The notes under the pieces are model-generated. The model did not search any database. It had not been told where the DNA came from and worked only from the letters and a program-made list of their open reading frames with translations. Made by a program: the position numbers and the translations under genes. A stretch of 24,000 nt of DNA. Origin: Actinomycetota bacterium. GTDB taxonomy: Bacteria; Actinomycetota; Actinomycetes; Mycobacteriales; Micromonosporaceae. This document shows positions 3,352 to 23,179 of the stretch, in pieces (the first letter of the stretch is position 1; every line of letters starts with the position of its first letter). The stretch is from contig VAWN01000043.1 of NCBI GenBank assembly GCA_005885555.1, forward strand, positions 100,192 through 124,191. Reading direction: 5' to 3'.

Positions 3352-3418
3352 CCCCCCGGCCCCCCGCCCCGGCCCCCAGCCGCCCGCCCGCTGCGCGGCG
3401 CGGCGCGGCCGCCCCGCC

Positions 3419-3486
3419 GATCTTGGAGTTGTGTCGGGGACATAAGGGATGCCGCTCCGCGAGTCGGGCACCACAAGTCCAAGATC
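3419..3486 (+). repeat. 68-bp palindrome-ended intergenic repeat, copy A (MITE/REP-like)
   Basis: Termini are GATCTTGGAGTTGTG ... CACAAGTCCAAGATC (about 15-bp imperfect inverted repeats). 60/68 positions are identical to the reverse complement of 16176..16243. It lies 68 nt downstream of the glnA2 stop. Confidence 0.8.
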
Positions 3487-3534
3487 GACGCGGTCGGGGG
3501 GTTTGTGTCGGACCCCGGCGCTACGGTGCCGGGC

Positions 3535-4967: not shown

Positions 4968-5053
4968 GCGGCGCACTTTAGCCGCAAACACCGACAGGAC
5001 GCTGTCGCGGCCGCCCGGCACGCTGCGTTGGTCAACCCACGAAGGAGGCTCCG

Positions 5054-5434: not shown

Positions 5435-6354
5435 CGCCCGGCCGGTGCGACGGTGAGGGTACCGGCGGCGACGTCGAGCGTCGCCGGTACCCCGAGCGGC
5501 ACGGTCAGCTGCCCGAAGCCGTGCCCGACCGGCAGCCCGCCGAGCACCGGTACCCCCAGGTCGCCCAGCCGTTCGGCAAGCACCTCGGCGACGGTGACCG
5601 GCCACTCGTCGGTGCACCGGGTGAACTGGCCGACCGCGAACCCGACGACCCCGGCGAGCGCGCCGGCCCGGCGCAGCTGGGTCAGCATCCGGTCGACCTT
5701 GTACGGCGCCTCGTCGATCTCCTCCAGCAGCAGCACCGCGCCGCGCAGGTCGGGGAAGTCCGGGGTACCCAGCGTCGAGGAGAGCAGGCACAGGTTGCCG
5801 CCGAGCAGGGTACCGGTGACCGCCGGCCCGCCCACCACGACCGGCCCGGTCTCCGCGGCCGGATCCGCGGGTACCACCACCGGCTCGGCGCTCATCAGCG
5901 CGGCCCGCAGCGAGTCGGCGGACACCTGCGGGGTACGCGCGTCGATCCACGCCGCCCCCGGCCCGTGTACCGTGGCCAGCCGCGCCCGCGCCCACAGCGC
6001 CAGCTGCAGCGCGGTGATGTCGGAGAACCCGACGACGAGCTTCGGATCGGCCCGGACCGCATCGATGTCCAGGCCGTCGACGATGCGCTGCACGCCGTAC
6101 CCGCCCCGGGTGCAGACCACCGCCCGGACCGCCGGGTCGCGCAGGGCGGCGTTGAGCGACGCGAGCCGCTGCGCATCGGTACCGGCGAAGAAGCTGTGCC
6201 GCCCGTACACGTCCGCGCCGAGCACCACGGTCAGCCCCCAGCCGGACAGCAGCTCGGTGCCCCGGGCGACCCGGTCGGCGCTGGGCGGGCCCGCCGGCGA
6301 GATCAGCATCACCGGGTCGCCGGGCCGCAGGACCGGCGGCTGCAGTATGGACAT
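5422..6354 (-). CDS. S66-family LD-carboxypeptidase (LdcA/MccF-like serine peptidase)
   Basis: Starts 'MSILQPPVLRPGDPVMLISPAG'. Has 'GGYG', the nucleophile motif 'VGFSDITAL', 'LLLEEIDE.PY..DRML.QL' and a C-terminal 'GHG'. ATG at 6354 lies within ORF 5422..6969. It overlaps the convergent VOC gene by 13 nt. Confidence 0.85.
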   Translation of the reverse strand: MSILQPPVLRPGDPVMLISPAGPPSADRVARGTELLSGWGLTVVLGADVYGRHSFFAGTDAQRLASLNAALRDPAVRAVVCTRGGYGVQRIVDGLDIDAVRADPKLVVGFSDITALQLALWARARLATVHGPGAAWIDARTPQVSADSLRAALMSAEPVVVPADPAAETGPVVVGGPAVTGTLLGGNLCLLSSTLGTPDFPDLRGAVLLLEEIDEAPYKVDRMLTQLRRAGALAGVVGFAVGQFTRCTDEWPVTVAEVLAERLGDLGVPVLGGLPVGHGFGQLTVPLGVPATLDVAAGTLTVAPAGRQES

Positions 6355-6372
6355 CGCCCGGCAGCTTAACCC

Positions 6373-7182
6373 GTGTCGTTGGATAGCCTGAGGGGCGTGG
6401 CGAGCGACCGCACCCCCGTGACCAACCGGACCCTTGTCGTGGAGAACGACCCGACCGACGACGCGCGCCGGCTCGGCGGGTGGCTCACCGAGGGCGGCCT
6501 GGCCCTGGAGGTCTGCCGGCCGCACGCCGGCGATCCGCTGCCGGAGCAGCTGGACGGGTACGCCGCGCTGGTCGTCCTCGGCGGGGAGCAGCCGGCCTAT
6601 CCGGCGCCGGACGGCACCCCGGGGGCGCCCTGGTTCCCGGCGCTGGAAGGGTTGCTGCGCAAGGCGGTCCGGTACGAGGTGGCGACCCTCGGGGTGTGCC
6701 TGGGCGGGCAGCTGCTGGCGGCCGCGCTCGGGGGTACCGTCGAGCGCAGCGCCGCCGGGCCGGAGATCGGGCCGCGGCTGGTCGCCCGCCGCGACGCCGC
6801 CGAGCGTGACGCGCTGTGGGCACCGGTACCGCTGGCGCCCGACGTCCTGCAGTGGCACCTCGACGAGATCACCGAGCTGCCCGCCCGGGCGACCCTGCTC
6901 GCCGCCTCGACCTACTACCCGCACCAGGCGTTCCGGGCTGGTACCCGCGCCTGGGGGCTGCAGTTCCACATCGAGTGCGACACCGCGATGGTGGCCGACT
7001 GGGTGGCCGGCAACCCGACCGCGCTGGCCGAGCTGGGCATCGCACCGGATCGGCTGGTCGCCGCGTGCGACGCGGTCATGCCGGACCTTGCGGAGGTGTG
7101 GCGGCCGTTCGCGCTGCGGTTCGCCGCGATCGCACTGGGCACGCTGGCTCCCGGAGCCGGCCGCGAGCTTCCGGTGTTATGA
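6373..7182 (+). CDS. class-I (type 1) glutamine amidotransferase-like protein
   Basis: Has 'LVVLGG', the nucleophile elbow 'GVCLGGQLL' and 'GLQFHIE' (His/Glu of the triad). The start is uncertain (GTG at 6373, 6397 or 6418). The stop overlaps the glnE start (ATGA). Confidence 0.75.
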   Translation: MSLDSLRGVASDRTPVTNRTLVVENDPTDDARRLGGWLTEGGLALEVCRPHAGDPLPEQLDGYAALVVLGGEQPAYPAPDGTPGAPWFPALEGLLRKAVRYEVATLGVCLGGQLLAAALGGTVERSAAGPEIGPRLVARRDAAERDALWAPVPLAPDVLQWHLDEITELPARATLLAASTYYPHQAFRAGTRAWGLQFHIECDTAMVADWVAGNPTALAELGIAPDRLVAACDAVMPDLAEVWRPFALRFAAIALGTLAPGAGRELPVL

Positions 7183-10016
7183 GTACCCCGCCCGGGATGG
7201 CGAGACCGGTCGGCGCCGCGGCGGCACTGGCCCGGTACCGGCTCGCCGACCCGGGGCGGGCGCACCAACTGCTGCGCGCGCTGGCGCTGTGGGACGGCAC
7301 CCCGGCCGATCCGGGCGCCGAGGCGATCCTCGACGCGCTCGGCCGCACCGCCGACCCGGACCTCGCGCTGCGCCAGCTGCACCGGCTCGCCGAGGGCGAC
7401 GAGGACCTGCTGTTCCGGCTGCGGGTCAACCCGAGCCTGCGCGCGCGGTTGCTGGCGGTGCTCGGCGCATCCGACGCGCTCGGCGACCATCTGGTCGCCA
7501 ACCCGGGGGAGTGGCGGACGCTGGCCGCGCCGAACGGGTACGCGCTGCGGTTCGACGGTTCGACCGTGCCGCGGCTGCGGATCGCCTACCGGCGCAGCCT
7601 GTTGCGCGTCGCCGCCGGCGACCTGACCGGGGCGCTGGACGTGGAGCAGACCATGACCGCGCTGTCCGCACTCGCCGACGCCACGCTGGCGGCCGCGTTC
7701 GAGCTGGCCGGCGGCGACGGTACCGGCCTGGCCGTCATCGCGATGGGAAAGTGCGGCGGCAACGAGCTGAACTACGTGTCCGACGTGGACGTCATCTTCG
7801 TCGCCCGCGCCGACGAGCACCTCGACGTGGGTACCCGGGTCGCCGCGCGGCTGATGGAGATCTGCGGCCAGGTCGCCTGGCCGGTCGACGCCGCGCTGCG
7901 TCCGGAGGGCAGCCGCGGTGCGCTGGTCCGGACGCTGGCCAGCCATCTGGCGTACTACACGAAGTGGGCGCGCACGTGGGAGTTCCAGGCGCTGCTCAAG
8001 GCCCGCCCGGCGGCCGGGGATCTCAATTTGGGACGCGAGTGGCTGGAAGCGTTGCAGCCACTCATCTGGCACGCGGCCGAGCGGCCCGAGGCGGTACCCG
8101 ACATCCGCGCCATGCGCCAGCGGATCGTCGAGGCGGTACCCCGTGCCGAGCGCGACCGGGAGATCAAACGCGGTCCGGGCGGCTTGCGGGATATCGAGTT
8201 CGCCGTGCAGCTGCTGCAGCTCGTGCACGGCCGTGCCGACGAGTCGCTGCGCTCACCGTCCACATTGGACGCTCTGCGCGCGCTCTCACATGGTGGATAC
8301 GTGGGACGCGCCGCCGGAGAGGCACTCGACCGCGCGTACCAGTTCCTGCGTACCGTCGAGCACCGGCTGCAGTTGCAGAAGCTGCGCCGCACGCATCTGG
8401 TACCGGCCGACCCGGAGGGCCAGCGGTGGCTCGCCCACGCGCTGGGGTACCGCGCCGGCAGCGGCCAGGACGCCGTCGAGCGCTTCCGTGCCGACTGGCT
8501 CGCGATGGCCACGGAGGTCCGGCGGCTGCACGCCAAGCTGCTGTACCGTCCGCTGCTTGACGCGGTGGCCCGGGTACCCGGTGACGACCTGCGACTGACC
8601 CCGGATGCGGCCCGGCTGCGGTTGGAGGCGCTGGGGTACGCCGATCCGGCCGGTGCGCTGCGCCACATCGAGGCGCTCACCGGTGGCGTGTCGCGAACCG
8701 CGGCGATCCAACGGCAGTTGCTGCCGGTACTGCTGTCCGAGTTCGCCGACGCACCCGAGCCGGACCGCGGGCTGCTCGCCTACCGCCAGGTTTCCGAGAA
8801 GCTCGGCGCGACACCCTGGTACCTGCGACTGCTGCGCGACGAGGGACCGGTGGCGCTGCGCCTGTCCCGGCTGCTGGGCCTGTCCCGGTATGTCACCGAC
8901 CTGCTCGCCCGCGACCCGGAAGCGTTGCGGCTGCTGGCCGACGACGCGGAGCTGGCACCCCGCCCGCGGGAGACGCTGCGCGACGGGTTCGCCGCGGCGG
9001 CGGCGCGGCACGGCGACCCGGTGGCCGCGATCGCGGCGGTCCGCGCGCTGCGCCGCCGGGAGCTGTTCCGCATCGCGTGCGCCGACCTGCTCGGGCTGGT
9101 CGAGCTGACGGCGGTCGGCGGCGCGCTCGCCGACGTCACCGACGCGACGCTCGCCGCGGCGCTGGCCGTCACGAACCGCACCGGGTTGCCGTTCACCATC
9201 ATCGGCGTGGGACGGCTCGGCGGGTACGAGGTGAGCTATTCGTCCGACGCCGACGTGCTTTTCGTGTACGACGGGGACCGCGGTTCGGCCGCGCATGAGG
9301 TCGCCGAGGAGCTGCGCCGGCTGCTCGCCGCGCCCGCGCCGGATCCGCCGCTGGGCGTGGACGCGGACCTGCGCCCGGAGGGCCGGCAGGGGCCGCTGGT
9401 GCGCAGTCTCGCCGCGTACACGCAGTACTACGACCGCTGGGCGCACGTGTGGGAGGCGCAGGCGTTGCTGCGGGCGCGGTACGTCGCCGGGGATGCCGCG
9501 CTCGCGCAGCGGTTCCTGGAACTGGCCGGCCGGATCCGGTACCCGGCCGGTGGGCTCACCCGTGAACAGGTCACCGAGATCCGGCGCATCAAGGCCCGGG
9601 TGGACAGCGAGCGGCTGCCCCGCGGTGCGGATCCGGCGTTGCACGCGAAGCTGGGCCGGGGCGGGCTGGCCGACATCGAGTGGACGGTACAGCTGCTGCA
9701 GTTGCGCTACGGCGACCAGGTACCGGAGCTGCGCACCACGCGGACCCTGCCGGCTCTGGAGGCCGCGCGCCGCGCGGAGCTGGTCGACGGCGCCGACGCG
9801 CTGGCCCTGTCCCGGGCGTGGACCCTGGCCAGCCGGGTGCGTAACGCGCTGATGCTGGTGCGCGGGCGGCCCACCGACGAGCTGCCCCGGCACGGTCCGG
9901 AACTGGCCGGCGTGGTACGGATCCTGCGCGCACCCGAGGCCGGTGCGTTCGTCGACGACTACCTGCGCACCGCACGCCGCGCCCGCCAGGTCTTCGAGCG
10001 CCTCTTCGGCGGCTGA
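7179..10016 (+). CDS. glnE: bifunctional [glutamine synthetase] adenylyltransferase / adenylyl-removing enzyme
   Basis: 945 aa with two nucleotidyltransferase halves ('GKCGGNELNYVSDVDVIFV' and 'GRLGGYEVSYSSDADVLFV'), each followed by a 'D..LRPEG..G.LV' GlnE repeat. ATG at 7179 (alternative 7197). Confidence 0.93.
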   Translation: MSTPPGMARPVGAAAALARYRLADPGRAHQLLRALALWDGTPADPGAEAILDALGRTADPDLALRQLHRLAEGDEDLLFRLRVNPSLRARLLAVLGASDALGDHLVANPGEWRTLAAPNGYALRFDGSTVPRLRIAYRRSLLRVAAGDLTGALDVEQTMTALSALADATLAAAFELAGGDGTGLAVIAMGKCGGNELNYVSDVDVIFVARADEHLDVGTRVAARLMEICGQVAWPVDAALRPEGSRGALVRTLASHLAYYTKWARTWEFQALLKARPAAGDLNLGREWLEALQPLIWHAAERPEAVPDIRAMRQRIVEAVPRAERDREIKRGPGGLRDIEFAVQLLQLVHGRADESLRSPSTLDALRALSHGGYVGRAAGEALDRAYQFLRTVEHRLQLQKLRRTHLVPADPEGQRWLAHALGYRAGSGQDAVERFRADWLAMATEVRRLHAKLLYRPLLDAVARVPGDDLRLTPDAARLRLEALGYADPAGALRHIEALTGGVSRTAAIQRQLLPVLLSEFADAPEPDRGLLAYRQVSEKLGATPWYLRLLRDEGPVALRLSRLLGLSRYVTDLLARDPEALRLLADDAELAPRPRETLRDGFAAAAARHGDPVAAIAAVRALRRRELFRIACADLLGLVELTAVGGALADVTDATLAAALAVTNRTGLPFTIIGVGRLGGYEVSYSSDADVLFVYDGDRGSAAHEVAEELRRLLAAPAPDPPLGVDADLRPEGRQGPLVRSLAAYTQYYDRWAHVWEAQALLRARYVAGDAALAQRFLELAGRIRYPAGGLTREQVTEIRRIKARVDSERLPRGADPALHAKLGRGGLADIEWTVQLLQLRYGDQVPELRTTRTLPALEAARRAELVDGADALALSRAWTLASRVRNALMLVRGRPTDELPRHGPELAGVVRILRAPEAGAFVDDYLRTARRARQVFERLFGG

Positions 10017-10052
10017 GCGCGCCTGTCCGGCGGCTGAGCGCGCCTGTCCGGC
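10011..10052. repeat. perfect 2 x 21-bp tandem duplication spanning the glnE stop codon
   Basis: GGCTGAGCGCGCCTGTCCGGC occurs at 10011..10031 and again at 10032..10052. The unit is 7 codons long, in frame, and each copy carries TGA. Confidence 0.95.
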
Positions 10053-10059
10053 GGCCGGC

Positions 10060-10785
10060 TCACCGGTTGAACGTGGGCTGCCAGCCCAGCACCGCCCGCG
10101 CCTTCTCGACGCTCCACAGCCCGGCGGACCGGTCACCGGCGATGGTGAACGCCTGGCAACCGTCGCGGTGGTCGAGCGCGGCGAGCACCGCCCGGCCAAG
10201 GTCGCTCGCCGCGGTCGCGTCGATCGGTGTGCCGTCGTCGGCGTACCGCTGGATGTGCTCCCCGTGGGCGTTCCACTTCGGCCACACCTCGTCGGGCGTG
10301 GGGAACGCCAGGCGCAGCATGTTCACCGTCATGCCCCACGTCTCGTAGGCCGCCCGGCACACCTCCTCACCGAGCCGCTTGCTGAGGCCGTACACGTCGA
10401 CGGCGTCCGGCGGGTCGGCCTCGGTCACCCGGCGCGCGAACAGGTTGCGGTACACCGACAGGCTGCTGATGTGCACGGCGTGTGTCACCCCCGCGTCGTG
10501 TGCGGCGCGCAGCGTCACGTGTACCGACACCACGTTCACCTCGAACGCATCCGTTGCGCCGCCGGGGGAGTCGACGTCGAGGTCGCCCATCGCGCAATGC
10601 AGCACGGCGTCGCACCCGTCGACCGCGCGCCGGGCGGTGTCGTAGTCTGTCGCGCTGCCGACCACGTGGTCGATCCCGTCGGCGGGCGGGCGCCGGTCCA
10701 GTACCCGCACCGCATGCCGCCCGGTCAGCTGCGGCCGGACAAGGCCCGCCACGTTACCCGCCCCGCCGACGATGAGTACCCGCAT
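10060..10785 (-). CDS. NAD(P)-dependent epimerase/dehydratase-family (SDR) protein
   Basis: 'MRVLIVGGAGNVAG' is a Rossmann GxxGxxG motif and 'YGLSK' is the YxxxK catalytic motif. ATG at 10785 lies inside ORF 10060..10929. It starts 7 nt after the upstream acylase stop, so an operon is likely. Confidence 0.8.
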   Translation of the reverse strand: MRVLIVGGAGNVAGLVRPQLTGRHAVRVLDRRPPADGIDHVVGSATDYDTARRAVDGCDAVLHCAMGDLDVDSPGGATDAFEVNVVSVHVTLRAAHDAGVTHAVHISSLSVYRNLFARRVTEADPPDAVDVYGLSKRLGEEVCRAAYETWGMTVNMLRLAFPTPDEVWPKWNAHGEHIQRYADDGTPIDATAASDLGRAVLAALDHRDGCQAFTIAGDRSAGLWSVEKARAVLGWQPTFNR

Positions 10786-10792
10786 GGCGCTC

Positions 10793-13225
10793 CTATGGTT
10801 GCAGGACAAGGGTGTCGGTCGAGGCGGCCCGGACCGCCGCCGCGCTCCACCGCATCGGCAGCAGCTGCCCGGTGCGCCACAGGTCGAACTGGTCGCGGTA
10901 GTGGTCGGTGAACGGGTGCCCCGACTCACCGGTCAGCTGCACCCAGCGCGAACCGTCCAGATTGGACAGATCGACGACCATCCGCATCGACGGTACCGCG
11001 TCGACGCCGTACCCGGCCGACGGGTTCCAGCCGGTGGCGTCCACAATGGACGATCCACCGGACACCGCGACCGGCCCGTAGTTGAACAGCCATTCCACCG
11101 GCCCCACGCCGGACGTGCCGAAGCTGGCGTTGCGCAGGGTCAGCGTGTGCAGCCGGCCCCACCGCCAGGTACCCGGATCCTTGCCCAGCTTCGCGGTCAG
11201 CTCGTCGGCCGCGTCGTTCATCGCCGCGGTGACGATGTCGTCGCGGGTCTCCACCTTCGGCGTGGACCGGTCGTCCCACCACGGCGAGTTCTCCTGGTTC
11301 AGCAGCCGCAGCAGGACGAACCACCAGCGGTCGCCGCCCTCCGGCCGGTACCCGTCGGGCAGTTCGTCGAAGGTGCGCGCGAGCAGGTGCCGGTACACCG
11401 CGTTGAAGTACGCCGCCGCGGCCGAACTGTGCGCCTGCGGGCTGCCGGCCGGCCCGTCGGCCGGTTGCTGGAAGTCCCAGCCGGTCAACAGGTCCACGGC
11501 CTTCGCCGGTACCGGCTCGTTCAGCAGGCCCGGCACGATCTGTCCGGCGAAGCCGTTGAAGTTGTCGAACTGCATGCGCTGCACGGCGTCGACGGTCAGC
11601 TTTCCGCCGTTCCTCGTGGCAGTGTCGATGAGGTCGGCGATGCGGCTGCTGCGGTACCCGTAGGCCCAGTCGTTGGTGAGCAGGTACGGGTACTTCCGCT
11701 CGTCGACGACGGCCTGGTTCGCGGTGACCAGGTAACCGCCCGGCGGGTCGTACACCGACGGCAGCGCGTCGAACGGGACAAAGGACTTCCAGTCGTACCC
11801 GGAGTCCCAGCCCGGTGCCGGCCAGCGCCCGTCGCCCTTGCCGCGCACCGGTACCCGCCCCGGCGCCTGGTACCCGATGTTGCCGTCCACGTCGGCGTAG
11901 GTCATGTTCTGCGCGGGTACGTCGAACAGCCGCGCGGCTGCCCGGAACTGCGCCCAGTCGCCGGCCCGGTCGAGGGCGAACAGCGCGTCCATGGTGTGGC
12001 CGGGATCCAGCGCGGTCCACCGCAGCGCGACGGCGTACCCGTTGCCCGCCCGGCTCAACTGGCTGGACGCGTCGGACAGCAGTGGCCCGTTGTTCGTGCT
12101 GCGGATCGTCAGCTGCACCGGGTCGCCGCCGGCCACCGTGATGGTCTCGTGCCGTACCGCGAGCGGCCGCCACTGCCCGTCCACCTGGTACCGGTCGCCG
12201 TCCACCTTCTCCAGGTACAGGTCTGTGACGTCCGGGTTGAGGTTGGTGAAGCCCCAGGCGATGCGCGCGTTGTGCCCGATGACCACGCCGGGCATCCCGG
12301 AGAACGTGAACCCCTCCACGTCGTATCCGCAGTCGCAGTGCAGGCCCATCTGGTACCAGATCCCGGGCATCGACGGGGACAGGTGCGGGTCGTTGGCGAG
12401 GATCGGCTTACCGGTCGCGGTCAGCGCCCCGGACACGACCCAGCTGTTGGATCCGATCCCGGGCAGGTCGGCGGCTTCCCCGATCCCGCCTTCCACCGCG
12501 GCGGCCGTGAACACTCCATTGTGGACAGTCCCACCGTCCACAATGGGCGGATGCAACGCGTACGGGTACTGCGGGTACAGGTCCTCGATCCGTTGCCGGG
12601 GCAGGCCGGAGGCGAGCAGGACCGCCCGGGTGGTCTCGTCGACCATGTTGCCACGCAGGTCCCACGCCATCGCCTTGAGCCAGGCGAGGCTGTCGATCGG
12701 ATCCCACGGCGCGATCCGGTACCCGCCGTTGGACAGCCCCAGCAACGCGAACTCCAGGCCGGCCGCCGGACCGGAGTGCTCGTGCAGCCAGGCGTTCACA
12801 CCGGTCGCGTAGTCCTGCAGGTACCGCCGGGTCTGCGGGGCGAGGATGAGCCATTCCTGTTCAGCGACGCGGCGCCAGCCCATCGTGCGAAGGTACCGGT
12901 CGGTCTGCACCTGGGCCCTGCCGAACAGCTCGGCGAGCCGGCCGGCGGTCAGGTGCCGGCGGAAGTCCATCTCCCAGAACCGTTCCTGCGCGTGCACGTA
13001 CCCCTGCGCGGTGAACAGGTCGTCGGCGCTGTGCGCGTACACCTGCGGGATGGCCTGCGCGTCGCGGTACACGGTGACCGGTGCCGACAGCCCCGCCAGC
13101 CGCAGCTGCCCGTCGTAGACCGGAAACGCCGAGCGTACCGTCCACACCGCGCCCACGAGCGCGACCAGCGCCAGCGTCACGACGGACACGCCGGCCCACA
13201 GAGCGATCCGCCGCCAGCGCGCCAC
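10793..13225 (-). CDS. penicillin-acylase-family Ntn hydrolase (S45; possible acyl-homoserine-lactone/antibiotic acylase)
   Basis: 810 aa with an N-terminal TM/signal anchor. Has 'DDLFTAQGYVHAQERFWEMDFRR', and 'GSNSWVVSG' is the autoprocessing Ser nucleophile motif. GTG start at 13225. Confidence 0.88.
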   Translation of the reverse strand: MARWRRIALWAGVSVVTLALVALVGAVWTVRSAFPVYDGQLRLAGLSAPVTVYRDAQAIPQVYAHSADDLFTAQGYVHAQERFWEMDFRRHLTAGRLAELFGRAQVQTDRYLRTMGWRRVAEQEWLILAPQTRRYLQDYATGVNAWLHEHSGPAAGLEFALLGLSNGGYRIAPWDPIDSLAWLKAMAWDLRGNMVDETTRAVLLASGLPRQRIEDLYPQYPYALHPPIVDGGTVHNGVFTAAAVEGGIGEAADLPGIGSNSWVVSGALTATGKPILANDPHLSPSMPGIWYQMGLHCDCGYDVEGFTFSGMPGVVIGHNARIAWGFTNLNPDVTDLYLEKVDGDRYQVDGQWRPLAVRHETITVAGGDPVQLTIRSTNNGPLLSDASSQLSRAGNGYAVALRWTALDPGHTMDALFALDRAGDWAQFRAAARLFDVPAQNMTYADVDGNIGYQAPGRVPVRGKGDGRWPAPGWDSGYDWKSFVPFDALPSVYDPPGGYLVTANQAVVDERKYPYLLTNDWAYGYRSSRIADLIDTATRNGGKLTVDAVQRMQFDNFNGFAGQIVPGLLNEPVPAKAVDLLTGWDFQQPADGPAGSPQAHSSAAAAYFNAVYRHLLARTFDELPDGYRPEGGDRWWFVLLRLLNQENSPWWDDRSTPKVETRDDIVTAAMNDAADELTAKLGKDPGTWRWGRLHTLTLRNASFGTSGVGPVEWLFNYGPVAVSGGSSIVDATGWNPSAGYGVDAVPSMRMVVDLSNLDGSRWVQLTGESGHPFTDHYRDQFDLWRTGQLLPMRWSAAAVRAASTDTLVLQP

Positions 13226-13269
13226 GCGGAGATCCTATCCGGACAACCGGCCGACGGGGTTGCGCCGGT

Positions 13270-13475
13270 TCAGCCGCTCGGCTCCTCGTCGGGATCCCCA
13301 CTCCACCCTGCCCTGCGGCGCAGCTGCTCGGCGATCTGCTCGGGCCGCGACGCAGGTCGGCCAGGCGTACCCGCGCGTGCGCAGCCCGCTCCCGCGCCTG
13401 AGCGGCACGGTCGTGGGCCTCGGCGGCCCGGCGGAAGAGCCGCTCACGCTCCGGATGTTCGTCCGGCTCACTCAT
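13270..13475 (-). CDS. small hypothetical Arg/Ala/Glu-rich ORF, apparently frameshifted
   Basis: ATG at 13475 gives 'MSEPDEHPERERLFRRAAEAHDRAAQARERAAHARVRLADLRRG'. That frame then runs 360 nt into the acylase gene. The -1 frame continues 'PEQIAEQLRRRAGWSGDPDEEPSG*' and stops at 13270, 44 nt before the acylase start. The 206-nt length is not a multiple of 3. Confidence 0.3.
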
Positions 13476-13520
13476 GACCGCAGCATGCCACGGTGAACGC
13501 CCGGAGTCGCCCGGTCAGGT

Positions 13521-14165: not shown

Positions 14166-15590
<1,425 letters not shown>

Positions 15591-15662
15591 CACGTCCTCC
15601 TGGTTGATCCACAGGTGGTCAGCGCCGATGCTGGATATTGGCCGCGACGCTATGACTATGGC

Positions 15663-15700
15663 ATTGCCCGAGCATGTCTCAATTGTTTCCGCCGTGTTAC
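15663..15700 (-). promoter_or_regulatory. candidate GlnR operator (four 5-mers at 11-nt phasing) upstream of glnA
   Basis: The minus strand reads GTAAC-n6-GAAAC-n6-GACAT-n6-GCAAT. The first pair matches the actinobacterial GlnR a-site/b-site consensus gTnAc-n6-GaAAc exactly. It lies about 75-110 nt upstream of the glnA start in the most AT-rich patch of the window. Confidence 0.5.
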
Positions 15701-15755
15701 GTCCCTGGCGGCCCACCTCGGGCCGGTCGCGGGTAGCCGGCTACGCTCGGTACCC

Positions 15756-16257: not shown

Positions 16258-16287
16258 CGCGCGCTCAACGGCCGCGCGCTCAACGCC
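16258..16287. repeat. 2 x 15-bp tandem duplication spanning the DUF4191 gene stop codon
   Basis: CGCGCGCTCAACGGC / CGCGCGCTCAACGCC (1 mismatch). Each copy carries TCA (TGA on the minus strand), in frame and 5 codons apart. Confidence 0.9.
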
Positions 16288-16978
16288 CCCGCATCGCCCG
16301 GAACGCGCCCTTCGGCGGCCGCATATTCTTCGGGATCGCGCCCTTGGGCATCTGCGGCCGGGCGGTCAGTGCCTTGAGCCGCAGGTCCAGCGCGTTGACC
16401 TCTTTGCCGGACAGGCTGCGCGGCAGCTTCATGAGGGTGACCCGCAGCTTGCTGATCGGCACCTGGCCCTCGTCGTGCCCGATGACCACGTCGTGCAGTT
16501 CGGCCGAGCCGATCACCTTGGCCAGCCGACGCTTCTCCTGGCCGAGCAGGCTGCGTACCCGCGACGGGTTGCCCTCCGCGACCAGGATCACGCCCGGCCT
16601 GCCGATCACCAGGTGGACGAAGTCCATCTGCGTCGTCGAGGCGAGGCCCGGCGTGACCCGCCAGTCGCCGCGCATGTTCTCGATGATGGAGGCGGCCGCG
16701 CCCGGCTGCCGCTCGGCCTCGATCATCATCGCCTTGTTGGACCGGACGCTGAGCACGGCCATCGCGGCCACCAGCGCCGCCATGAGGCCGCTGATCAGCC
16801 AGATCCAGCCACCGGTGAAGGTGGCCAGCAGGGTACCCCCGACCAGCGGCAGCAGGAACGCGGTGATGACCAGCGGCAGGAACCACTTGTCGCGCTTGGC
16901 GGTGAACGAGAACACCATGCCGATCTGCCGGAGTCGCTGGCGGAACGACACCTTCTCCGGACCCGCTGCCTTAGCCAT
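16280..16978 (-). CDS. DUF4191-domain membrane protein
   Basis: 'MAKAAGPEKVSFRQRLRQIGMVFSFTAKRDKWFLPL...' followed by two TM helices, then 'GRPGVILVAEG...RLL..E.RR' and 'GQVPISKL'. This matches the conserved actinobacterial family found beside lipA. ATG at 16978. Confidence 0.8.
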   Translation of the reverse strand: MAKAAGPEKVSFRQRLRQIGMVFSFTAKRDKWFLPLVITAFLLPLVGGTLLATFTGGWIWLISGLMAALVAAMAVLSVRSNKAMMIEAERQPGAAASIIENMRGDWRVTPGLASTTQMDFVHLVIGRPGVILVAEGNPSRVRSLLGQEKRRLAKVIGSAELHDVVIGHDEGQVPISKLRVTLMKLPRSLSGKEVNALDLRLKALTARPQMPKGAIPKNMRPPKGAFRAMRGR

Positions 16979-17020
16979 GCCGCCGAGTCTATGCGGCCCG
17001 CGACTCGGCGCGCAGAGCAC

Positions 17021-17069
17021 GCTCCCCGGGACTCAGCGCTCCCCGGACTCAGCGCCGCCCGGACTTACC
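17021..17069. repeat. about 3 tandem copies of a 16-17-bp unit overlapping the lipA stop codon
   Basis: GCTCCCCGGGACTCAGC / GCTCCCCGGACTCAGC / GCCGCCCGGACTTACC. The third, degenerate copy contains the lipA TAA (17065..17067). Confidence 0.85.
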
Positions 17070-17997
17070 GCGCAGTACGCGCTGCCATGGCCTGAGCGTA
17101 GAGCCGGCCGGCGCGGTACGAGGAACGCACCAGCGGGCCGCTCATCACGCCGGCGAAGCCGATCCGCTCCGCCTCCTCGCGCAGCTCGACGAACTCCTCG
17201 GGCCGCACCCAGCGCTCGACCGGATGGTGGCGCGGAGTCGGCCGCAGGTACTGGGTGATGGTCACCAGTTCGCAGCCGGCGTCGTGCAGGTCGCGCAGCG
17301 CCTGGGACACCTCGGCCCGCTCCTCGCCCAGCCCGAGGATCAGGTTGGACTTGGTCACCAGTCCGGCGGCGCGGGCCCGGCGCAGCACGTCGAGCGAGCG
17401 CTCGTACCGGAACGCCGGCCGGATCCGCTTGAAGATCCGCGGTACCGTCTCCACGTTGTGCGCGAGCACCTCCGGCCGCGCGCCGAACACCTCGCCCAGC
17501 TGTGCCGGGTCGGCGTCGAAGTCCGGGATCAGCAGCTCCACTCCGCAGCCGGGCAGCAGCTTGTGGATCTGCCGGACGGTCGCCGCGTAGAGCCACGCGC
17601 CGCCGTCGGGCAGGTCGTCGCGCGCCACGCCGGTCACGGTCGCGTACTTCAGTCCCATCGTGGCCACCGACTCGGCCACCCGGCGCGGTTCGTCGGCGTC
17701 GAACTCGGCCGGCCGGCCGGTGTCGATCTGGCAGAAGTCGCACCGCCGGGTACATTGATCGCCGCCAATGAGGAAGGTGGCCTCGCGGTCCTCCCAGCAT
17801 TCGTAGATGTTGGGGCAGCCGGCTTCCTGGCAGACGGTGTGCAGACCCTCCCGCTGCACCAGCCCGCGCAGTGCGGTGAACTGCGGCCCCATCCGCGCCG
17901 TCACCTTGATCCAGGGCGGCTTGCGTTCGATGGGGGTCTCCGCGTTACGCGCTTCGATGCGCAGCATGCGGCGGCCGTCGGGCTGGGCGAGGGTCAC
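17065..17997 (-). CDS. lipA: lipoyl synthase (radical SAM)
   Basis: Has '[12 protein letters not shown]' and '[12 protein letters not shown]' (auxiliary cluster), '[10 protein letters not shown]' (CX3CX2C radical-SAM cluster) and a C-terminal 'RSSY'. I prefer the GTG at 17997, which gives '[18 protein letters not shown]'. In-frame alternatives are 18018, 17967 and 18063. Confidence 0.92.
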
Positions 17998-18094
17998 AAG
18001 CGCAGCGTACGCCCTCATCAGCCGAAACCGGACGGTGGAAAGCGGTGGGGCGACGAGGGTCACGTCCGGTAGCCTGGGCGGTCACGGCGTTGAC

Positions 18095-18295
18095 GGAACC
18101 GAGTAGCGCGCCGACCCGCCAGTCGAGAGAGCCGCCGGTAGCTGGGAAGGCGGTCTGGCGCCGGCGCGTGAAGACACTCCCGAGCCGCGGCACGGCAGAG
18201 AGGCCGTCCGTTCCGGGCGGCGAAGGTGTGGTGGCACCGCGAGGCACCCTTCTCGCCCGCACCTCCGAAGGGGACACAACCATCGGAGGTGACCA
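18095..18295 (+). promoter_or_regulatory. T-box riboswitch leader, Asp (GAC) specifier, translational (SD-sequestering) type
   Basis: Stem I carries AGUA (18103-18106) opposite a GAA-GAC-A specifier loop (18170-18176). An AGAGA-containing bulge (18121-18131) and a distal loop (18137-18148) follow. There is an F-box-like CCGUUC (18208-18213). The T-box core is GGUGUGG-UGGCACC-GCGAG (18225-18243). In the antisequestrator, helix A2 is GCGAG/CUCGC and helix A1 is GGUGUGG/CCGCACC (18257-18263). A competing 9-bp helix, CACCUCCGA (18260-18268) / UCGGAGGUG (18283-18291), buries the SD 5 nt before the ATG at 18296. Confidence 0.85.
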
Positions 18296-19516
18296 ATGAA
18301 CCGCATCCTTTCCACGCAGCTGCCCGAGCACGCCGGGCAGACCGTGACGCTGGCCGGCTGGGTACACCGGCGTCGGCTGCTCAAGTCGGTCGGCTTCCTG
18401 GTCCTGCGCGACCGGGCCGGCCTGGCCCAGGTGGTTGCCGCGCCGCCGGCGCTCGCCGCCTTTCCGGAAGAGACGGTGGTACTGGTGACCGGCGTGGCCA
18501 CGGTCAACCCGGCCGCCCCGGGCGGCGTGGAGGTCGCCGGGCCGACCATCGTCGCGTTGACCGACCCGGCGCAGCCGCCGCCGTTCGACCTGTACCGTCC
18601 CGAACTCGCCGCCGCCCTGCCGACCCTGCTCGACCATGCACCGGTGGCGCTGCGCCATCCGCGGCTGAGCGCGTTGCACCGGTTGTCGGCCAGAGCCGTG
18701 GCCGGGTTCCGTCAGGCGCTCGACGCGCTGGACTTCATCGAGATCCACACGCCGAAGCTGGTCGCCTCGGCGACCGAGTCCGGCGCCAACGTGTTCGGCA
18801 TCGACTACTTCGGCCGTCCCGCATACCTCGCGCAGAGCCCGCAGTTCTACAAGCAGATGATGGTCGGGGTCTTCGAGCGGGTCTACGAGGTCGGGCCGGT
18901 GTTCCGGGCCGAGCCGCACGACACGGTACGGCATCTGGCGCAGTACACGTCGCTGGACGCCGAACTCGGGTTCATCACCGACCACCGCGAGGTCATGGCG
19001 GTCGTCCGTTCCGTCGTGGCCGGAATGCTCGACGGCACCGGCGTCGAGGTGCCCGCCGAGATCCCCGCGATCCACTTCGCCGACGCCATGGACCTGCTCG
19101 GTGCCGACGAGCCCGACCTCGCTCCGGCGCACGAGCGCTGGCTGGGTGAGTGGGCGGTGCGGGAGTACGGCAGCGAACTGCTGTTCGTCACCGGGTACCC
19201 GATGGTCAAGCGGCCGTTCTACACCCACCCGGAACCCGGCCGGCCCGGTTACTCCAACAGCTTCGACCTGCTGTTCCGGGGGATGGAGATCGTCACCGGC
19301 GGCCAGCGGCTGCACCGGTACGGCGACTATGTGTCGGCGCTGCACGGCCAGGACCTCGCGCCGTACGAGGCGTACCTGCAGGCGTTCCGGCACGGGATGC
19401 CGCCGCACGGCGGCTTCGCGCTGGGGCGGGAGCGGTTCGTGGCGCGACTGACCGGGGCGGCCAACGTCCGGCAGACCACCCTGTTCCCGCGGGACCTGCA
19501 CCGCCTGTCGCCGTGA
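18296..19516 (+). CDS. aspS: aspartate--tRNA ligase, archaeal/eukaryal type (type 2, 406 aa); second-copy AspRS
   Basis: N-terminal OB fold ('GQTVTLAGWVHRRRLLKSVGFLVLRD'). Class IIb motifs 'QSPQFYKQMMV', 'GPVFRAEPHDTVRHLAQYTSLDAE' and 'GGFALGRER'. The C-terminal 'LFPRDLHRLSP' is typical of archaeal-type AspRS. The upstream T-box specifier is the Asp codon. Confidence 0.85.
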   Translation: MNRILSTQLPEHAGQTVTLAGWVHRRRLLKSVGFLVLRDRAGLAQVVAAPPALAAFPEETVVLVTGVATVNPAAPGGVEVAGPTIVALTDPAQPPPFDLYRPELAAALPTLLDHAPVALRHPRLSALHRLSARAVAGFRQALDALDFIEIHTPKLVASATESGANVFGIDYFGRPAYLAQSPQFYKQMMVGVFERVYEVGPVFRAEPHDTVRHLAQYTSLDAELGFITDHREVMAVVRSVVAGMLDGTGVEVPAEIPAIHFADAMDLLGADEPDLAPAHERWLGEWAVREYGSELLFVTGYPMVKRPFYTHPEPGRPGYSNSFDLLFRGMEIVTGGQRLHRYGDYVSALHGQDLAPYEAYLQAFRHGMPPHGGFALGRERFVARLTGAANVRQTTLFPRDLHRLSP

Positions 19517-19518
19517 AT

Positions 19519-19562
19519 CGTCAACTCGGACTTGACGCGCCGGCGTCAACCCACACTTGACG
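19519..19562 (+). promoter_or_regulatory. two tandem 19-bp palindromes CGTCAA-n7-TTGACG (candidate operators / alternative hairpins)
   Basis: CGTCAActcggacTTGACG lies at 19519-19537 and CGTCAAcccacacTTGACG at 19544-19562, with 25 bp between centres. The inner arms can also pair (TTGACGC gccg GCGTCAA, 19532-19549). The array ends 1 nt before the ATG at 19564. No SD is visible. Confidence 0.6.
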
Positions 19563-19563
19563 C

Positions 19564-20268
19564 ATGACTCCACTCACCGTGAAGCTGCAGGAGCTGATCG
19601 ACCAGATCGAGGCCGACCTGCCCGACGCGGATCCTGTCGCCAAGATCGGCGAGGCCCGGCTGCGCAGCCGTACCCTTGTCGATCTCGGCGACCAGCTCGT
19701 CGACCACTACGTGCACGCGGCCCGCGCGGACGGCGCCTCGTGGAGCCAGATCGGCGACGCGCTCGGCGTCACCAAGCAGGCCGCCCAGCAACGCCGGTCC
19801 GACCCGCAGTTCGAGCGGTACACCGGCCGGGCGCGGCACGTCGTCGTACTGGCGCAGGACCGGGCGCGCACGCTCAAGCACGACCGGATCGACACCGGCC
19901 ACCTGCTACTCGGCCTGCTCGGCGAGCCGGACGGGCTGGCGGCGAAGGTGCTCGTCTCGCTGCTCGGCTCGCTCGACCCGGTCTCCGCGGCGGCGCACGC
20001 GGCGCTGACCCCCGGGGAGGGCAAGCCGCCGAGCGGGCACCTGATGCTCACCGAGGACGCCAAGCACACCCTCGGCCTGTCCGTCGAGATCGCCCTCGAC
20101 ATGAGCCACAACTACGTCGGTACCGAACACATCCTGATCGCACTGACGCGGATCCCGCAGGGGCAGGCCGCCCGGATCCTGACGGAGCTGGGCGTGACGC
20201 ACGACCGTGCGTACGACGCGGTCTCGGCCGCGCTGGTCGGGTACCAGCACAAGGCGCGCAAGACCTGA
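19564..20268 (+). CDS. ClpC2-like protein: N-terminal HTH-like region + Clp N-terminal (Clp_R) repeat domain, no ATPase module
   Basis: The C-terminal 150 aa align by eye to the ClpC N-domain ('FERYTGRARHVVVLAQDRARTLKHDRIDTGHLLLGLL.E.DG.AAKVL' and 'SGHL.LTEDAKHTLGLSVEIALDMSHNYVGTEHILIAL'). The N-terminal part contains 'GASWSQIGDALGVTKQAAQQR', as I recall it from mycobacterial ClpC2 (Rv2667). Confidence 0.75.
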   Translation: MTPLTVKLQELIDQIEADLPDADPVAKIGEARLRSRTLVDLGDQLVDHYVHAARADGASWSQIGDALGVTKQAAQQRRSDPQFERYTGRARHVVVLAQDRARTLKHDRIDTGHLLLGLLGEPDGLAAKVLVSLLGSLDPVSAAAHAALTPGEGKPPSGHLMLTEDAKHTLGLSVEIALDMSHNYVGTEHILIALTRIPQGQAARILTELGVTHDRAYDAVSAALVGYQHKARKT

Positions 20269-20277
20269 GCCGCGAGA

Positions 20278-20922
20278 TCAGAGCAGCATCGGCAGGTGGC
20301 GCTCGACGACCGGCAGCATCTGCGCGACGGTCACCTCGCGACCCAGCTCCCTGGACAGCGAGGTGACCGCGGCGTCGGTGATGCCGCAGGGCACGATGCG
20401 GTCGAAGCGGGTCAGGTCGCAGTCGCAGTTGAGGGCGAAGCCGTGCAGCGTCGTGTTGCGGGCGACGCGGATGCCGATCGCGGCCACCTTCCGGTCCGGT
20501 CCGCGGTCGTCGGCGGGTACCCACACCCCGGTGCGCCCCTTGATCCGCTGCGCCGACGGCACGCCGACCTCGGCGCAGACCGCGATGAGCATGGCCTCCA
20601 CCCGGCGCACGTAGGCCACGACGTCGAGGCGGCCGGCCGTAAGGCGCAGGATCGGATACCCGACGATCTGCCCCGGTCCGTGCCAGGTGATCTTCCCGCC
20701 CCGGTCGGTGTCCACCACAGGGGTACCGTCCAGCGGCCGCTCCCACGCTTCGGTGCGCTTTCCGGCGGTGTACACGTCGCGGTGTTCGAGCAGCAGAACC
20801 GTAGGCGGCGCAAGCCCTTCAGCCACCGCGGCGTGCAGCCGGCGCTGCTCGTCCCACGCGTCCTGGTAGTCGACGAGCCCCGGAAGGCGGACGGGCACGG
20901 GAGTCTGCACCGCGGTGGTCAT
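20278..20922 (-). CDS. lipB: lipoyl(octanoyl) transferase
   Basis: Has '[14 protein letters not shown]', '[19 protein letters not shown]', '[17 protein letters not shown]' and 'IVPCGI', which are canonical LipB motifs (Cys/Lys dyad). Confidence 0.92.
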
Positions 20923-21049
20923 GCGGCCAAGCGTAATCCCACCACTGTGCGGTGCGTTCCGTCACAGGTCGCCGGCCCGGTTCTCTCAGGACGCATCGGT
21001 ACCGTCACTCTGGCAGCCAGTGAACGCGTCGCACTTCGGGGGAGGGCAC

Positions 21050-23179
21050 GTGACGACGATCCGGGAAAAGGAACCGACCAGGCTCGAACCACCCGCGCCA
21101 CGGGTGACCGCGTGGCGCTGGCTCGTACCCGCGCTGCTGATCCTGGCGTGGCTGGTGGCCGGCGGCGCGCTGGGGCCGCTGTCGGGCAAGACGAACGAGG
21201 TACAGAAGAACGACAACAGCGCGTTCCTGCCGCAGAGCGCCGAGTCGACCAAGGTTCAGGAGCTGATCCCGCGGTTCACCACGAGCCAGTCGAGCGCCGG
21301 CATCGTCCTCTACGTCCGGCCCGGTGGGCTGACCGACGCGGACAAGGCCAAGATCCAGGATGACAAGGCGGCCATCGGCGGCCACTTCGACGGCCAGTTG
21401 GTCGGCGCACCGCTGGGGCCGGTGTGGAGCAAGGACGGCAAGGCCGCCGAGATCCTCGTGCAGTTCTCCGCGAGCGACCCGACCAAGCTCGGTGACGGCG
21501 TCCAGTGGATCCGCAACCAGGCCGGTACCAGTCCGGGGCTGGAGACGCACGTGGCCGGCCCGGCGGGCCTGTACGCCGACTTCGGCAACTCCTTCAAGGG
21601 CATCGACGGCCGGCTGCTGCTCGTGTCCGGCCTCATCGTGCTGGTCATCCTGATCCTGGTGTACCGCAGCCCGATCCTGCCGTTCGTGGTGCTCGGCAGC
21701 GCCGCCTTCGCCTCCACCATCGCCAACGGCGCGGTGTACCTGCTGGCCAAGCACGGCGTCATCACGCTCAACGGGCAGAGCCAGGGCATCCTCAACGTGC
21801 TCGTGCTCGGCGCCGGTACCGACTATGCGCTGCTGCTGGTCTCCCGGTACCGGGAGGAACTGCGCCGGTACCCGAGCCGCTTCGAGGCGATGAAGGTCGC
21901 CTGGCGGGCCGCGTTCGCGCCGATCGTGGCCAGCGGCGGCACCGTCATCGTCGCGCTGATGTGCCTGCTGCTGTCGGACCTGAAGTCCAACCAGGGCCTC
22001 GGCCCGGTCGGCTCGATCGGTATCGCGGCGGCGCTGCTGGCCATGCTGACCCTGCTGCCGGCGATCCTGACGCTGGTCGGCCGGGTGGCGTTCTGGCCGT
22101 TCCGGCCGACGTACGGCTCGCACCCGGCCGAGGAGCACGGCCTGTGGGGCCGGGTGTCCCGGGTGGTCGGCCGCCGGGCCCGCTGGGTCTGGGTGGTCGT
22201 CACGCTGATCCTGCTGGCGATGTCGGCCGGCCTGGTCCGGCTCAACCCCAACGGGGTACCGCTGGACAAGTCGTTCACGACCACCCAGGACTCGGTCGTC
22301 GGGCAGCGGGTGCTCGCGGAGCACTTCGACGCGGGTACCGGTACCCCGACGGTGATCATCGCAACTGCCGGCTCGCTCGACGACGTGATCGCCGCCGCTG
22401 GCCAGGTGCCCGGTGTCGGCAAGCCGATCGTGCCGTACACGGGTGCGCCGCCCGGGGTACCCGCACCGACCAAGGTGGTCGACGGGCTGGCCCGGGTCGA
22501 CGTCACGCTGACCGTCGCGCCGGACACCCCGGCCGGGCACGACGTCATCAAGGCGCTGCGGACCAGGGTGCACGCGGTACCCGCGGCGGACGCCAGGGTC
22601 GGCGGGTTCAGCGCGATCAACCTCGACGTGCAGGACACCGCCAAGCGCGACCGCAACGTCATCATCCCGCTCGTGCTCGTCGTGGTGTTCATGATCCTGG
22701 TGCTGCTGCTGCGGGCGGTACTGGCGCCGCTGGTGCTGATCCTCACCGTGGTGCTGTCGTTCGTCGCCACGCTGGGCGCGTCCGGCCTGATCTTCCGCGG
22801 CGTCTTCGGGTTCGTCGGCACCGACTCGGCGTTCCCGCTGTTCGCCTTCGTGTTCCTCGTCGCGCTCGGGGTCGACTACAACATCTTCCTGATGACCCGG
22901 GTACGGGAGGAGGCCGGAAAGCGCGGGCACCGGGCCGGTACCCTCACCGGGCTCGCGGTCACCGGCGGGGTCATCACGTCGGCGGGCCTGGTACTGGCGT
23001 CGACGTTCGCGGCGCTGTCGGTACTGCCGCTGGTGTTCCTGGCGGAGCTGGCGTTCACCGTGGCATTCGGCGTGCTGCTGGACACGCTCGTGGTGCGGAC
23101 CCTGCTGGTGCCTGCGCTGACCGTGGACATCGGCCGCATCTCCTGGTGGCCGAGCAGGCTGTCGCGCGGCGAACCGTAA
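21050..23179 (+). CDS. MMPL-family (RND superfamily) membrane transporter
   Basis: 709 aa from the GTG at 21050, which is preceded by GGGGGAGGG. There are two 6-TM bundles, each followed by the conserved 'G.DY.L.L..R.REE' / 'GVDYNIFLMTRVREE' motifs, with large extracytoplasmic loops. Confidence 0.88.
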   Translation: MTTIREKEPTRLEPPAPRVTAWRWLVPALLILAWLVAGGALGPLSGKTNEVQKNDNSAFLPQSAESTKVQELIPRFTTSQSSAGIVLYVRPGGLTDADKAKIQDDKAAIGGHFDGQLVGAPLGPVWSKDGKAAEILVQFSASDPTKLGDGVQWIRNQAGTSPGLETHVAGPAGLYADFGNSFKGIDGRLLLVSGLIVLVILILVYRSPILPFVVLGSAAFASTIANGAVYLLAKHGVITLNGQSQGILNVLVLGAGTDYALLLVSRYREELRRYPSRFEAMKVAWRAAFAPIVASGGTVIVALMCLLLSDLKSNQGLGPVGSIGIAAALLAMLTLLPAILTLVGRVAFWPFRPTYGSHPAEEHGLWGRVSRVVGRRARWVWVVVTLILLAMSAGLVRLNPNGVPLDKSFTTTQDSVVGQRVLAEHFDAGTGTPTVIIATAGSLDDVIAAAGQVPGVGKPIVPYTGAPPGVPAPTKVVDGLARVDVTLTVAPDTPAGHDVIKALRTRVHAVPAADARVGGFSAINLDVQDTAKRDRNVIIPLVLVVVFMILVLLLRAVLAPLVLILTVVLSFVATLGASGLIFRGVFGFVGTDSAFPLFAFVFLVALGVDYNIFLMTRVREEAGKRGHRAGTLTGLAVTGGVITSAGLVLASTFAALSVLPLVFLAELAFTVAFGVLLDTLVVRTLLVPALTVDIGRISWWPSRLSRGEP

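Follow-up and report, generated by a model that had tools for sequence, protein, structure and literature searches.

Two genes, aspS2 and clpC2, lie on the plus strand between the minus-strand genes lipA and lipB in a 24-kb stretch of Micromonosporaceae DNA (Actinomycetota bacterium, assembly GCA_005885555.1, contig VAWN01000043.1, positions 100,192-124,191), here called the window. The first encodes an archaeal-type, probably non-discriminating aspartyl-tRNA synthetase (AspRS) and follows a predicted T-box leader for tRNA-Asp; the second encodes a ClpC2-type protein and follows a twin operator. The two very probably constitute independent, separately sensed modules that stand side by side through lineage-specific synteny. 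There is no sign of aspS2 and clpC2 working together, and both are members of known systems. An earlier note on the window had named a T-box, an AspRS, twin palindromes and a ClpC2-type gene, all of which are present where it placed them, and its opposite-strand, two-gene geometry between lipA and lipB was likewise correct, the start of lipA alone having been adjusted. The Asp specificity that it gave to the T-box, the alternate status of the AspRS and the autoregulatory type of the ClpC2-like protein also agree with the evidence below.

The leader of aspS2

Upstream of aspS2 the plus strand carries a leader (18081-18291) with the specifier GAC and the bulge UGGC. The Rfam model RF00230, run in E-value mode, matched it over the full model at 18081-18263 (plus strand) with 51.1 bits and E=1.2e-9. 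Stem I (18081-18187, plus strand) was delimited from the Rfam alignment, from an alignment of 16 Stem I regions of related loci (alignment A1), from covariation and from a covariance model, R1, which was built from alignment A1 and a hand-drawn structure. The structure was drawn by hand because RNAalifold recovered outer helices only from the MAFFT alignment of Stem I. Stem I contains, all on the plus strand, a K-turn (TGA at 18091-18093 and AGTA at 18102-18105), an AG bulge GAGAGA (18125-18130), the distal loop GGTAGCTGGGAA (18137-18148), an S-turn GAA (18170-18172), directly 3' of it the specifier GAC (18173-18175), and after the specifier a purine, A (18176). TGA, AGTA, AGAGA and GAAGACAC are invariant in alignment A1. 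On this alignment the hand-drawn structure paired 81.8% of cells, and 15 of its pairs had changed on either side of the helix together. Its covariation score was reached by 0 of 500 shuffles and was not approached by any register shift.

The window Stem I scored 111 bits with R1. Among 80 aspS2 loci recovered from genomes for comparison, R1 found matches in 57, which belong to Actinomycetota, Chloroflexota and Bacillota, and it matched another six loci as well; there was exactly one match per locus, always on the aspS2 strand and just upstream of aspS2. The specifier column read GAC in 55 of the 57 leaders, as it does in the window. A plain regular expression for the specifier and K-turn missed many loci, so the covariance model was used instead.

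The antisequestrator, or T-box sequence (18225-18263, plus strand), was located by the Rfam alignment and by covariation in a second alignment, A4. Its helix A1 pairs GGTGTGG (18225-18231) with CCGCACC (18257-18263) and its helix A2 pairs GCGAG with CTCGC; the bulge TGGCA occupies 18232-18236, of which UGGC is 18232-18235, all on the plus strand. In alignment A4, 92.5% of cells were paired and 7 pairs were changed on both sides, with G-C/A-U exchanges across the alignment and 0 of 500 shuffles matching. Most loci have the motif TGGNACCRCG upstream of aspS2. tRNA-Asp carries G73, and the UGGC bulge fits this nucleotide.

A sequestrator hairpin is predicted at 18260-18291 (plus strand), an inverted repeat of 12 nt with 92% complementarity. 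Here the anti-Shine-Dalgarno (anti-SD) strand CACCTCCGA (18260-18268) pairs with TCGGAGGTG (18283-18291), within which the Shine-Dalgarno (SD) sequence GGAGGTG (18285-18291) ends 4 nt before the aspS2 ATG, all on the plus strand. The anti-SD shares 4 nt with the 3' strand of the antisequestrator, CCGCACC. The predicted fold has a minimum free energy of -20.6 kcal/mol with the SD fully paired, and the same SD-sequestering geometry was predicted for Micromonosporaceae relatives by per-sequence folds. A terminator scan of 17900-20500 returned no terminator-like site. Judged by the actinobacterial ileS T-boxes (PMC1262725), the aspS2 T-box appears to act on translation.

In 17 of 17 actinobacterial aspS2 leaders the start of the Stem I model is preceded, at 11-13 nt, by a TANNNT hexamer. 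Its counterpart in the window, TAGCCT at 18070-18075 (plus strand), is a candidate -10 element of the leader promoter; a generic sigma-70 promoter scan of 17900-20500 found nothing. Because the hexamer is conserved just upstream of Stem I, the transcript is suggested to begin at the T-box, near 18081.

Loss of the Stem II domain

The linker of the window leader (18188-18224, plus strand) holds Stem III, GCCGTCC/GGGCGGC, flanked by AGAGAG and GAA; an RRRxG-Stem III-AA motif has been described (PMC7583486). Stem II and the IIA/B domain are missing, 2 nt taking the place of 40 Rfam model positions. Between the end of Stem I and the UGGN bulge the window leader has 39 nt. The loci L081, L082, L003, L006, L012, L022 and L030 are similarly short there, with 34-44 nt, whereas 47 other aspS2 leaders have 74-174 nt. 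In the Nonomuraea leader (L004), Stem II and IIA/B can still be aligned. Not every T-box has Stem II, since glyQS leaders lack it, and its natural loss has been ascribed to glycine T-boxes and explained by strong GGC-GCC pairing (PMC7583486). A Stem II-less leader reading GAC would put that explanation to the test. A T-box that reads GAC for Asp, lacks Stem II, keeps a full Stem I and has a putative translational platform is a small variant of interest to specialists, and the combination of a full-length Stem I with such a platform falls outside the solved ileS and glyQS examples.

The synthetase

The aspS2 gene (18296-19516, plus strand) encodes a class II synthetase of 406 amino acids with an anticodon-binding OB-fold (PF01336) and a class II core (PF00152). 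Its product scored 487 bits with the NCBIfam model NF003483, 'aspartate--tRNA(Asn) ligase', which has a cut-off of 353, and it fell far under the cut-offs of the bacterial-type AspRS and asparaginyl-tRNA synthetase (AsnRS) models. The best match in the PDB, with 352 bits, was 1N9W, the non-discriminating, archaeal-type AspRS2 of T. thermophilus. GWVH and APGG are common to the window AspRS and the Thermus enzyme, whereas the discriminating enzyme of T. kodakarensis has GWVW and AKLG; the His in GWVH and the Pro in loop L1 (APGG) are presumably the positions governing acceptance of tRNA-Asn. From these similarities the product of aspS2 is an archaeal-type, probably non-discriminating AspRS, and it is called AspRS2 here.

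The OB-fold and the class II core were the only Pfam domains found in AspRS2, with no match to a GAD domain. A bacterial-type AspRS that includes a GAD domain is generally present in Actinomycetota, which counts against AspRS2 as the main enzyme of its host. Extra AspRSs are already documented: outside Deinococcus-Thermus they are mainly those of Actinomycetales, and two aspS genes are tabulated for Actinoplanes friuliensis, Verrucosispora maris, Streptosporangium roseum, Kitasatospora setae and others, with one for Micromonospora aurantiaca and for Salinispora arenicola (PMC4206432, Tables S1/S2). Since this survey lists two aspS in related genera, aspS2 is likely a second AspRS gene. It is unlikely that AspRS2 is instead the main or only AspRS, with the T-box as ordinary feedback on an essential enzyme, like that of mycobacterial ileS. 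Such a role would suit the location of aspS2, a housekeeping locus conserved throughout the family, the frequent control of sole-copy synthetases by T-boxes (PMC1262725) and the intact catalytic motifs, namely motif 2 (FRAEPH) and motif 3 (GGFALGRER). It sits poorly with the gene counts tabulated for Actinoplanes friuliensis, Verrucosispora maris, Micromonospora aurantiaca and Salinispora arenicola, and with Planosporangium, which has no aspS2 at the lipA-lipB site. No published description of a T-box on an actinobacterial aspS2 was found in the literature searched; an earlier description may exist, and TBDB may list the element.

ClpC2 behind a twin operator

The clpC2 gene (19564-20268, plus strand) encodes a protein of 234 amino acids with two Clp_N repeats; Clp_N is its sole domain family, and no AAA+ module was found in it. 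Residues 3-69 match PDB 8ADA, the N-domain of Rv2667, with E=2.9e-7, and residues 83-231 match the N-terminal domain of Mycobacterium tuberculosis ClpC1 with 119 bits in an alignment that begins at the F2 equivalent. The protein is predicted by these homologies to consist of an N-terminal dimerisation and DNA-binding domain followed by a copy of the ClpC1 N-domain. A further match of the N-terminal domain (19564-19770), with E=1.2e-5, is to the RelI antitoxin of M. tuberculosis RelS-RelI (Rv2663-Rv2664; PDB 9sdc), and it suggests a common DNA-binding/dimerisation fold.

The clpC2 operator, which is usually duplicated, has been defined as CGTCAAC-n5-GTTGACG, 1-2 nt upstream of an open reading frame (ORF) with a leaderless transcript (Taylor et al. 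2023, PMC10030653), and dual operators bind ClpC2 oligomers about 24-fold tighter (2026 preprint, PMC13345244). Two copies, assigned to no strand and each with 1 mismatch to this published sequence, precede the window gene, namely CGTCAACTCGGACTTGACG at 19519-19537 and CGTCAACCCACACTTGACG at 19544-19562, where 0.19 matches in the window would be expected by chance. The downstream copy ends 1 nt before the clpC2 ATG at 19564. The pair is kept before nine other clpC2 genes (L006, L027, L063, L081, L082, L088, L083 from Streptomyces, L085 from Actinomadura and L087 from another actinobacterium), and in all nine the second copy ends 1 nt before the ATG. Start-to-start spacing is 25 bp in the window, 28 bp in eight of the other loci and 29 bp in L082. 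No SD precedes the clpC2 ATG, and by analogy with the published operator this geometry would be that of leaderless initiation from the gene's own promoter. Since both the operator pair and its offset from the ATG are kept across nine loci, the window gene is, judged by its sequence, a canonical, textbook clpC2 locus. In L087 (5001-10702), clpC2 with its dual operators stands about 1.7 kb upstream of a nonribosomal peptide synthetase gene with Condensation, AMP-binding, PP-binding and Thioesterase domains.

Phosphoarginine and ClpC1-targeting antibiotics release ClpC2 from DNA (PMC13345244), and in mycobacteria ClpC2 has been proven to act as a sponge of cyclomarin and rufomycin (PMC10030653, PMC13345244). 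F2, F80 and E89 are critical for cyclomarin binding and have been called conserved in ClpC2 (PMC10030653). Compared with ClpC1, the window protein keeps F2 and has F80 replaced by L and E89 by G, with further changes of P79 to M and E31 to G (F80, E89, P79 and E31 corresponding to window residues 161, 170, 160 and 112). F80L and E89G bear on antibiotic binding and not on membership of the ClpC2 family. In the close ClpC2 homologues, those linked to aspS2, the F80 position is L in 9, F in 8 and M in 5, and in ClpC2 proteins further away it is F in 87 of 92, a pattern which suggests that constraint on this position has been relaxed within the aspS2-linked clade alone.

Distribution of the two genes and their adjacency

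lipA and lipB flank aspS2 in 11 of the 80 loci (Catellatospora, Rugosimonospora, Micromonospora, Actinoplanes and related metagenome-assembled genomes), and clpC2 is present in three of these 11. Catellatospora and Actinoplanes have aspS2 between lipA and lipB without clpC2, and a search started from lipB gave lipB-aspS2-lipA, again without clpC2, in Micromonospora cathayae, M. inyonensis and Micromonospora sp. WMMD882. These three genomes overturned the view that aspS2 is patchy in Micromonospora, which had been taken from the one Micromonospora in the top 120 matches. The order lipA-aspS2-lipB is the usual Micromonosporaceae arrangement. In Planosporangium flavigriseum lipB directly adjoins lipA, and in Micromonospora sp. 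KLBMP9576 (L008, 11300-14700) the space from aspS2 to lipB is taken up by TetR, DUF4166, cyclase-like and FUSC genes; the surroundings of lipA and lipB are variable within Micromonosporaceae.

The closest metagenomic relatives, with 86-90% AspRS2 identity, keep lipA-aspS2-clpC2-lipB. More than 50 T-box-aspS2 loci across three phyla have no clpC2, and the T-box(Asp)-aspS2 unit is an old module of Actinomycetota, Chloroflexota and Bacillota. In a neighbour-joining tree of AspRS2 all loci with clpC2 group as a single clade, whose sister is the Micromonosporaceae without clpC2, and the clpC2 orthologues of Streptomyces, Actinomadura and the other actinobacterium sit among unrelated genes. Because the clpC2-bearing loci all fall in one AspRS2 clade, the adjacency of aspS2 and clpC2 is best read as having arisen once and been inherited since. 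The spacer between the two genes ranges from 47 to about 430 nt, and each gene has its own sensor, no cis element being common to both. In L088 (1-4300) aspS2 and lipA are split into several reading frames, and clpC2 is followed by cbiQ-type genes and not by lipB. A reading of this aspS2 as a pseudogene, and hence as dispensable, was rejected: as lipA on the same contig is frameshifted too, the broken frames are most likely assembly errors.

The GC content across the lipA-lipB interval is 0.70-0.72 (0.706-0.716 for the two plus-strand genes), equal to that of the flanks, and this comparison gave no foreign compositional signature. The insertion of which the earlier note spoke is no recent one, lipA-aspS2-lipB being old and family-wide. 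In the comparison of the lipA-lipB interval across genera, which that note called for, the pair is kept in relatives of one clade only.

The note had also joined the two genes into one unit, a co-selected and inducible island of target backup plus decoy, shielding translation and Clp proteolysis from natural-product antibiotics. This is very unlikely. Both genes are indeed paralogues of drug targets, each with a stress-type sensor, their adjacency is kept in the window clade (including L006, L027, L063, L081, L082 and L088), further contigs with both genes are suggested by AspRS2 and ClpC2 matches on contigs of the same length, and the sponge role of ClpC2 in mycobacteria would suit a decoy. 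The genes nevertheless mostly occur apart, clpC2 being absent from the many T-box-aspS2 loci above and located elsewhere in other genera. The adjacency has a single origin, no cis element is common to both genes, the spacer varies in length and the composition is not anomalous. No biosynthetic or resistance genes were found close by in the window. The substitutions F80L and E89G in the cyclomarin pocket, at the first of which the clade is relaxed, weaken a decoy role for ClpC2, and the T-box would report Asp-tRNA charging just as it does for ordinary housekeeping synthetases. The resistance island is accordingly removed from the account of this locus: two drug-target paralogues came to be adjacent through what is best seen as one ancestral rearrangement, with no repeated association. 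Highly improbable, too, is a variant in which clpC2 was recruited beside aspS2 and kept as part of a joint protection module against competitors' natural products, with the ClpC2 pocket (F80L, E89G, P79M) tuned to a non-cyclomarin ligand and AspRS2 serving as an inhibitor-insensitive backup induced by charging stress.

Scarcely credible, finally, is a transcriptional coupling in which read-through from the aspS2 promoter feeds clpC2, so that clpC2 expression tracks aspS2 transcription: the window and L082 have 2-3 nt from the aspS2 stop to the first operator and no detected terminator, but read-through would not carry the Asp signal, since the T-box appears to act on translation, the clpC2 ATG without an SD points to a gene built for a leaderless start from its own promoter, the spacers of relatives measure 75-430 nt, and bound ClpC2 would block read-through.

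A model of two separately sensed modules

The elements of sequence and structure observed here, with their conservation, covariation, homologies and the distribution of both genes, can be assembled into a model of two independent modules, in which the tRNA response, translational control, leaderless start, repression and ligand release are patterned on published homologues. The aspS2 mRNA would start near 18081 with the Asp-specific T-box, whose Stem I would read the tRNA-Asp anticodon through GAC and contact the tRNA elbow. Only uncharged tRNA-Asp, its GCCA-3' end being free, would pair with the UGGC bulge. This pairing would stabilise the antisequestrator (18225-18263) and keep the anti-SD (18260-18268) off the SD (18285-18291), and AspRS2 would be translated. 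With charged tRNA-Asp the sequestrator hairpin would form and translation would be blocked. At the second module, ClpC2 oligomers would bind both operators over their own leaderless promoter and repress it. Ligands of the ClpC1-like domain, such as phosphoarginine and ClpC1-targeting cyclic peptides, would free ClpC2 from DNA, and the induced ClpC2 would soak up the ligand.

Several points weigh against this model. The window leader, at 51.1 bits, lies below the gathering score of RF00230, which is 93, and Rfam at its default gathering threshold therefore reported no T-box in the window; the E-value of 1.2e-9 and the context argue for its membership all the same. Other aspS2 leaders scored 67 bits (Nonomuraea), 43 (Micromonospora) and 104 (Paenibacillus) with this model, and the aspS2 T-boxes of high-GC genomes (43-67 bits) are probably unannotated because they fall below the cut-off. 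Covariation of the sequestrator across phyla was not significant and is weak outside Micromonosporaceae, and translational control is for this reason inferred by analogy. The affinity of the window leader for tRNA is uncertain because Stem II, normally needed by non-glycine T-boxes, is missing. A second, bacterial-type aspS was not seen within the 24 kb of the window. The 25-bp operator spacing leaves 14 nt between TTGACG of operator 1 and the putative -10. Retention of the adjacency in at least ten related contigs fits selection as well as descent. Some read-through from aspS2 into clpC2 may occur, as the window has no terminator and 2 nt from the aspS2 stop to the first operator.

Flanking genes

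The window is high-GC actinobacterial DNA throughout, and no tRNA genes were found in its 24 kb. On the left of aspS2, lipA (lipoyl synthase; 17065-18063 as the longest ORF, minus strand; Radical_SAM and LIAS_N domains) is 84-89% identical to lipA of the Micromonosporaceae loci. Its true start is probably the ATG at 17967, inside the longest ORF, because lipA of relatives is called at 300-317 amino acids. Beyond it lie a DUF4191 gene (16280-17020, minus strand) and glnA (14166-15716, minus strand). An amine-oxidase gene stands between lipA and DUF4191 in L089, L090 and L092 (about 9650-11280).

On the right, lipB (octanoyltransferase; 20278-20922, minus strand; LplA-B_cat domain) is 69-76% identical to Micromonosporaceae lipB and converges with clpC2, the two stop codons being 9 nt apart. 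An MMPL transporter gene (20915-23179, plus strand) diverges from lipB, and the longest ORFs of these two overlap by 8 nt at their 5' ends (20915-20922); at least one of the true starts is probably further inside its ORF. The MMPL gene also adjoins lipB in L082 and in Planosporangium (L091). Elsewhere in the window GlnE (6816-10016, plus strand), an LD-carboxypeptidase (5422-6969, minus strand) and an epimerase (10060-10929, minus strand) were recognised. The longest ORFs at 1396-4884, 4651-6369, 10772-13477 and 10926-12173 had no Pfam match, and any glnA2 expected from mycobacterial synteny was not among the ORFs recognised at those stretches.

Comparison with known systems

The ClpC2/clpC2o circuit, defined by experiment, is extended by this locus to Micromonosporaceae, where its operator is intact. 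The locus shares with mycobacterial ClpC2 (Rv2667/MSMEG; PMC10030653, PMC13345244) the two-domain architecture, the two operator copies, the position of the downstream copy 1 nt before the ATG and the putative leaderless geometry, and the equivalents of F2, Q17, H77 and K85 are kept together with the threonines T6 and T105. It differs in F80L, E89G, P79M and E31G, in an operator spacing of 25 bp against 28 bp, and in the location of the gene directly behind aspS2, between lipA and lipB. A relaxed F80 fits the view that antibiotic sponging may not be the primary role of ClpC2 (PMC13345244).

The aspS2 leaders make up a T-box family specific for Asp that is widespread on the archaeal-type aspS2 genes of Actinomycetota and Chloroflexota and likely unannotated in high-GC genomes. 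A T-box on an extra aspS has a precedent in Clostridium acetobutylicum, cited in PMC4206432. The Clostridium leader reportedly senses tRNA-Asn and controls an aspS-gatCAB operon (Saad et al. 2012). The window leader, in contrast, is predicted to sense tRNA-Asp and to control aspS2 alone. Actinobacterial ileS T-boxes (Seliverstov 2005, PMC1262725; PMC7583486) resemble the window leader in having no terminator, in preceding a synthetase gene and, as predicted for the window, in setting an SD-sequestering hairpin against a tRNA-stabilised antisequestrator. Their specifier is Ile and not Asp (GAC), however, their Stem I is truncated where that of the window is full-length with an elbow-binding platform, and they depend on Stem II, which the window leader lacks. 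With the glyQS-type T-box the window leader has in common a compact arrangement of Stem I, short linker, Stem III and discriminator, and neither has Stem II or the IIA/B pseudoknot; the window leader reads GAC and not GGC, its platform appears to be translational rather than a terminator, and its host is a high-GC actinomycete.

AspRS2 of Thermus/Deinococcus (1N9W) is, like the window enzyme, short, without a GAD-domain match, and provided with the His in GWVH and the Pro in the APGG loop, and it is an additional AspRS in organisms using GatCAB, as the window enzyme probably is. No argument from thermophily applies, in contrast, to the enzyme of the window.

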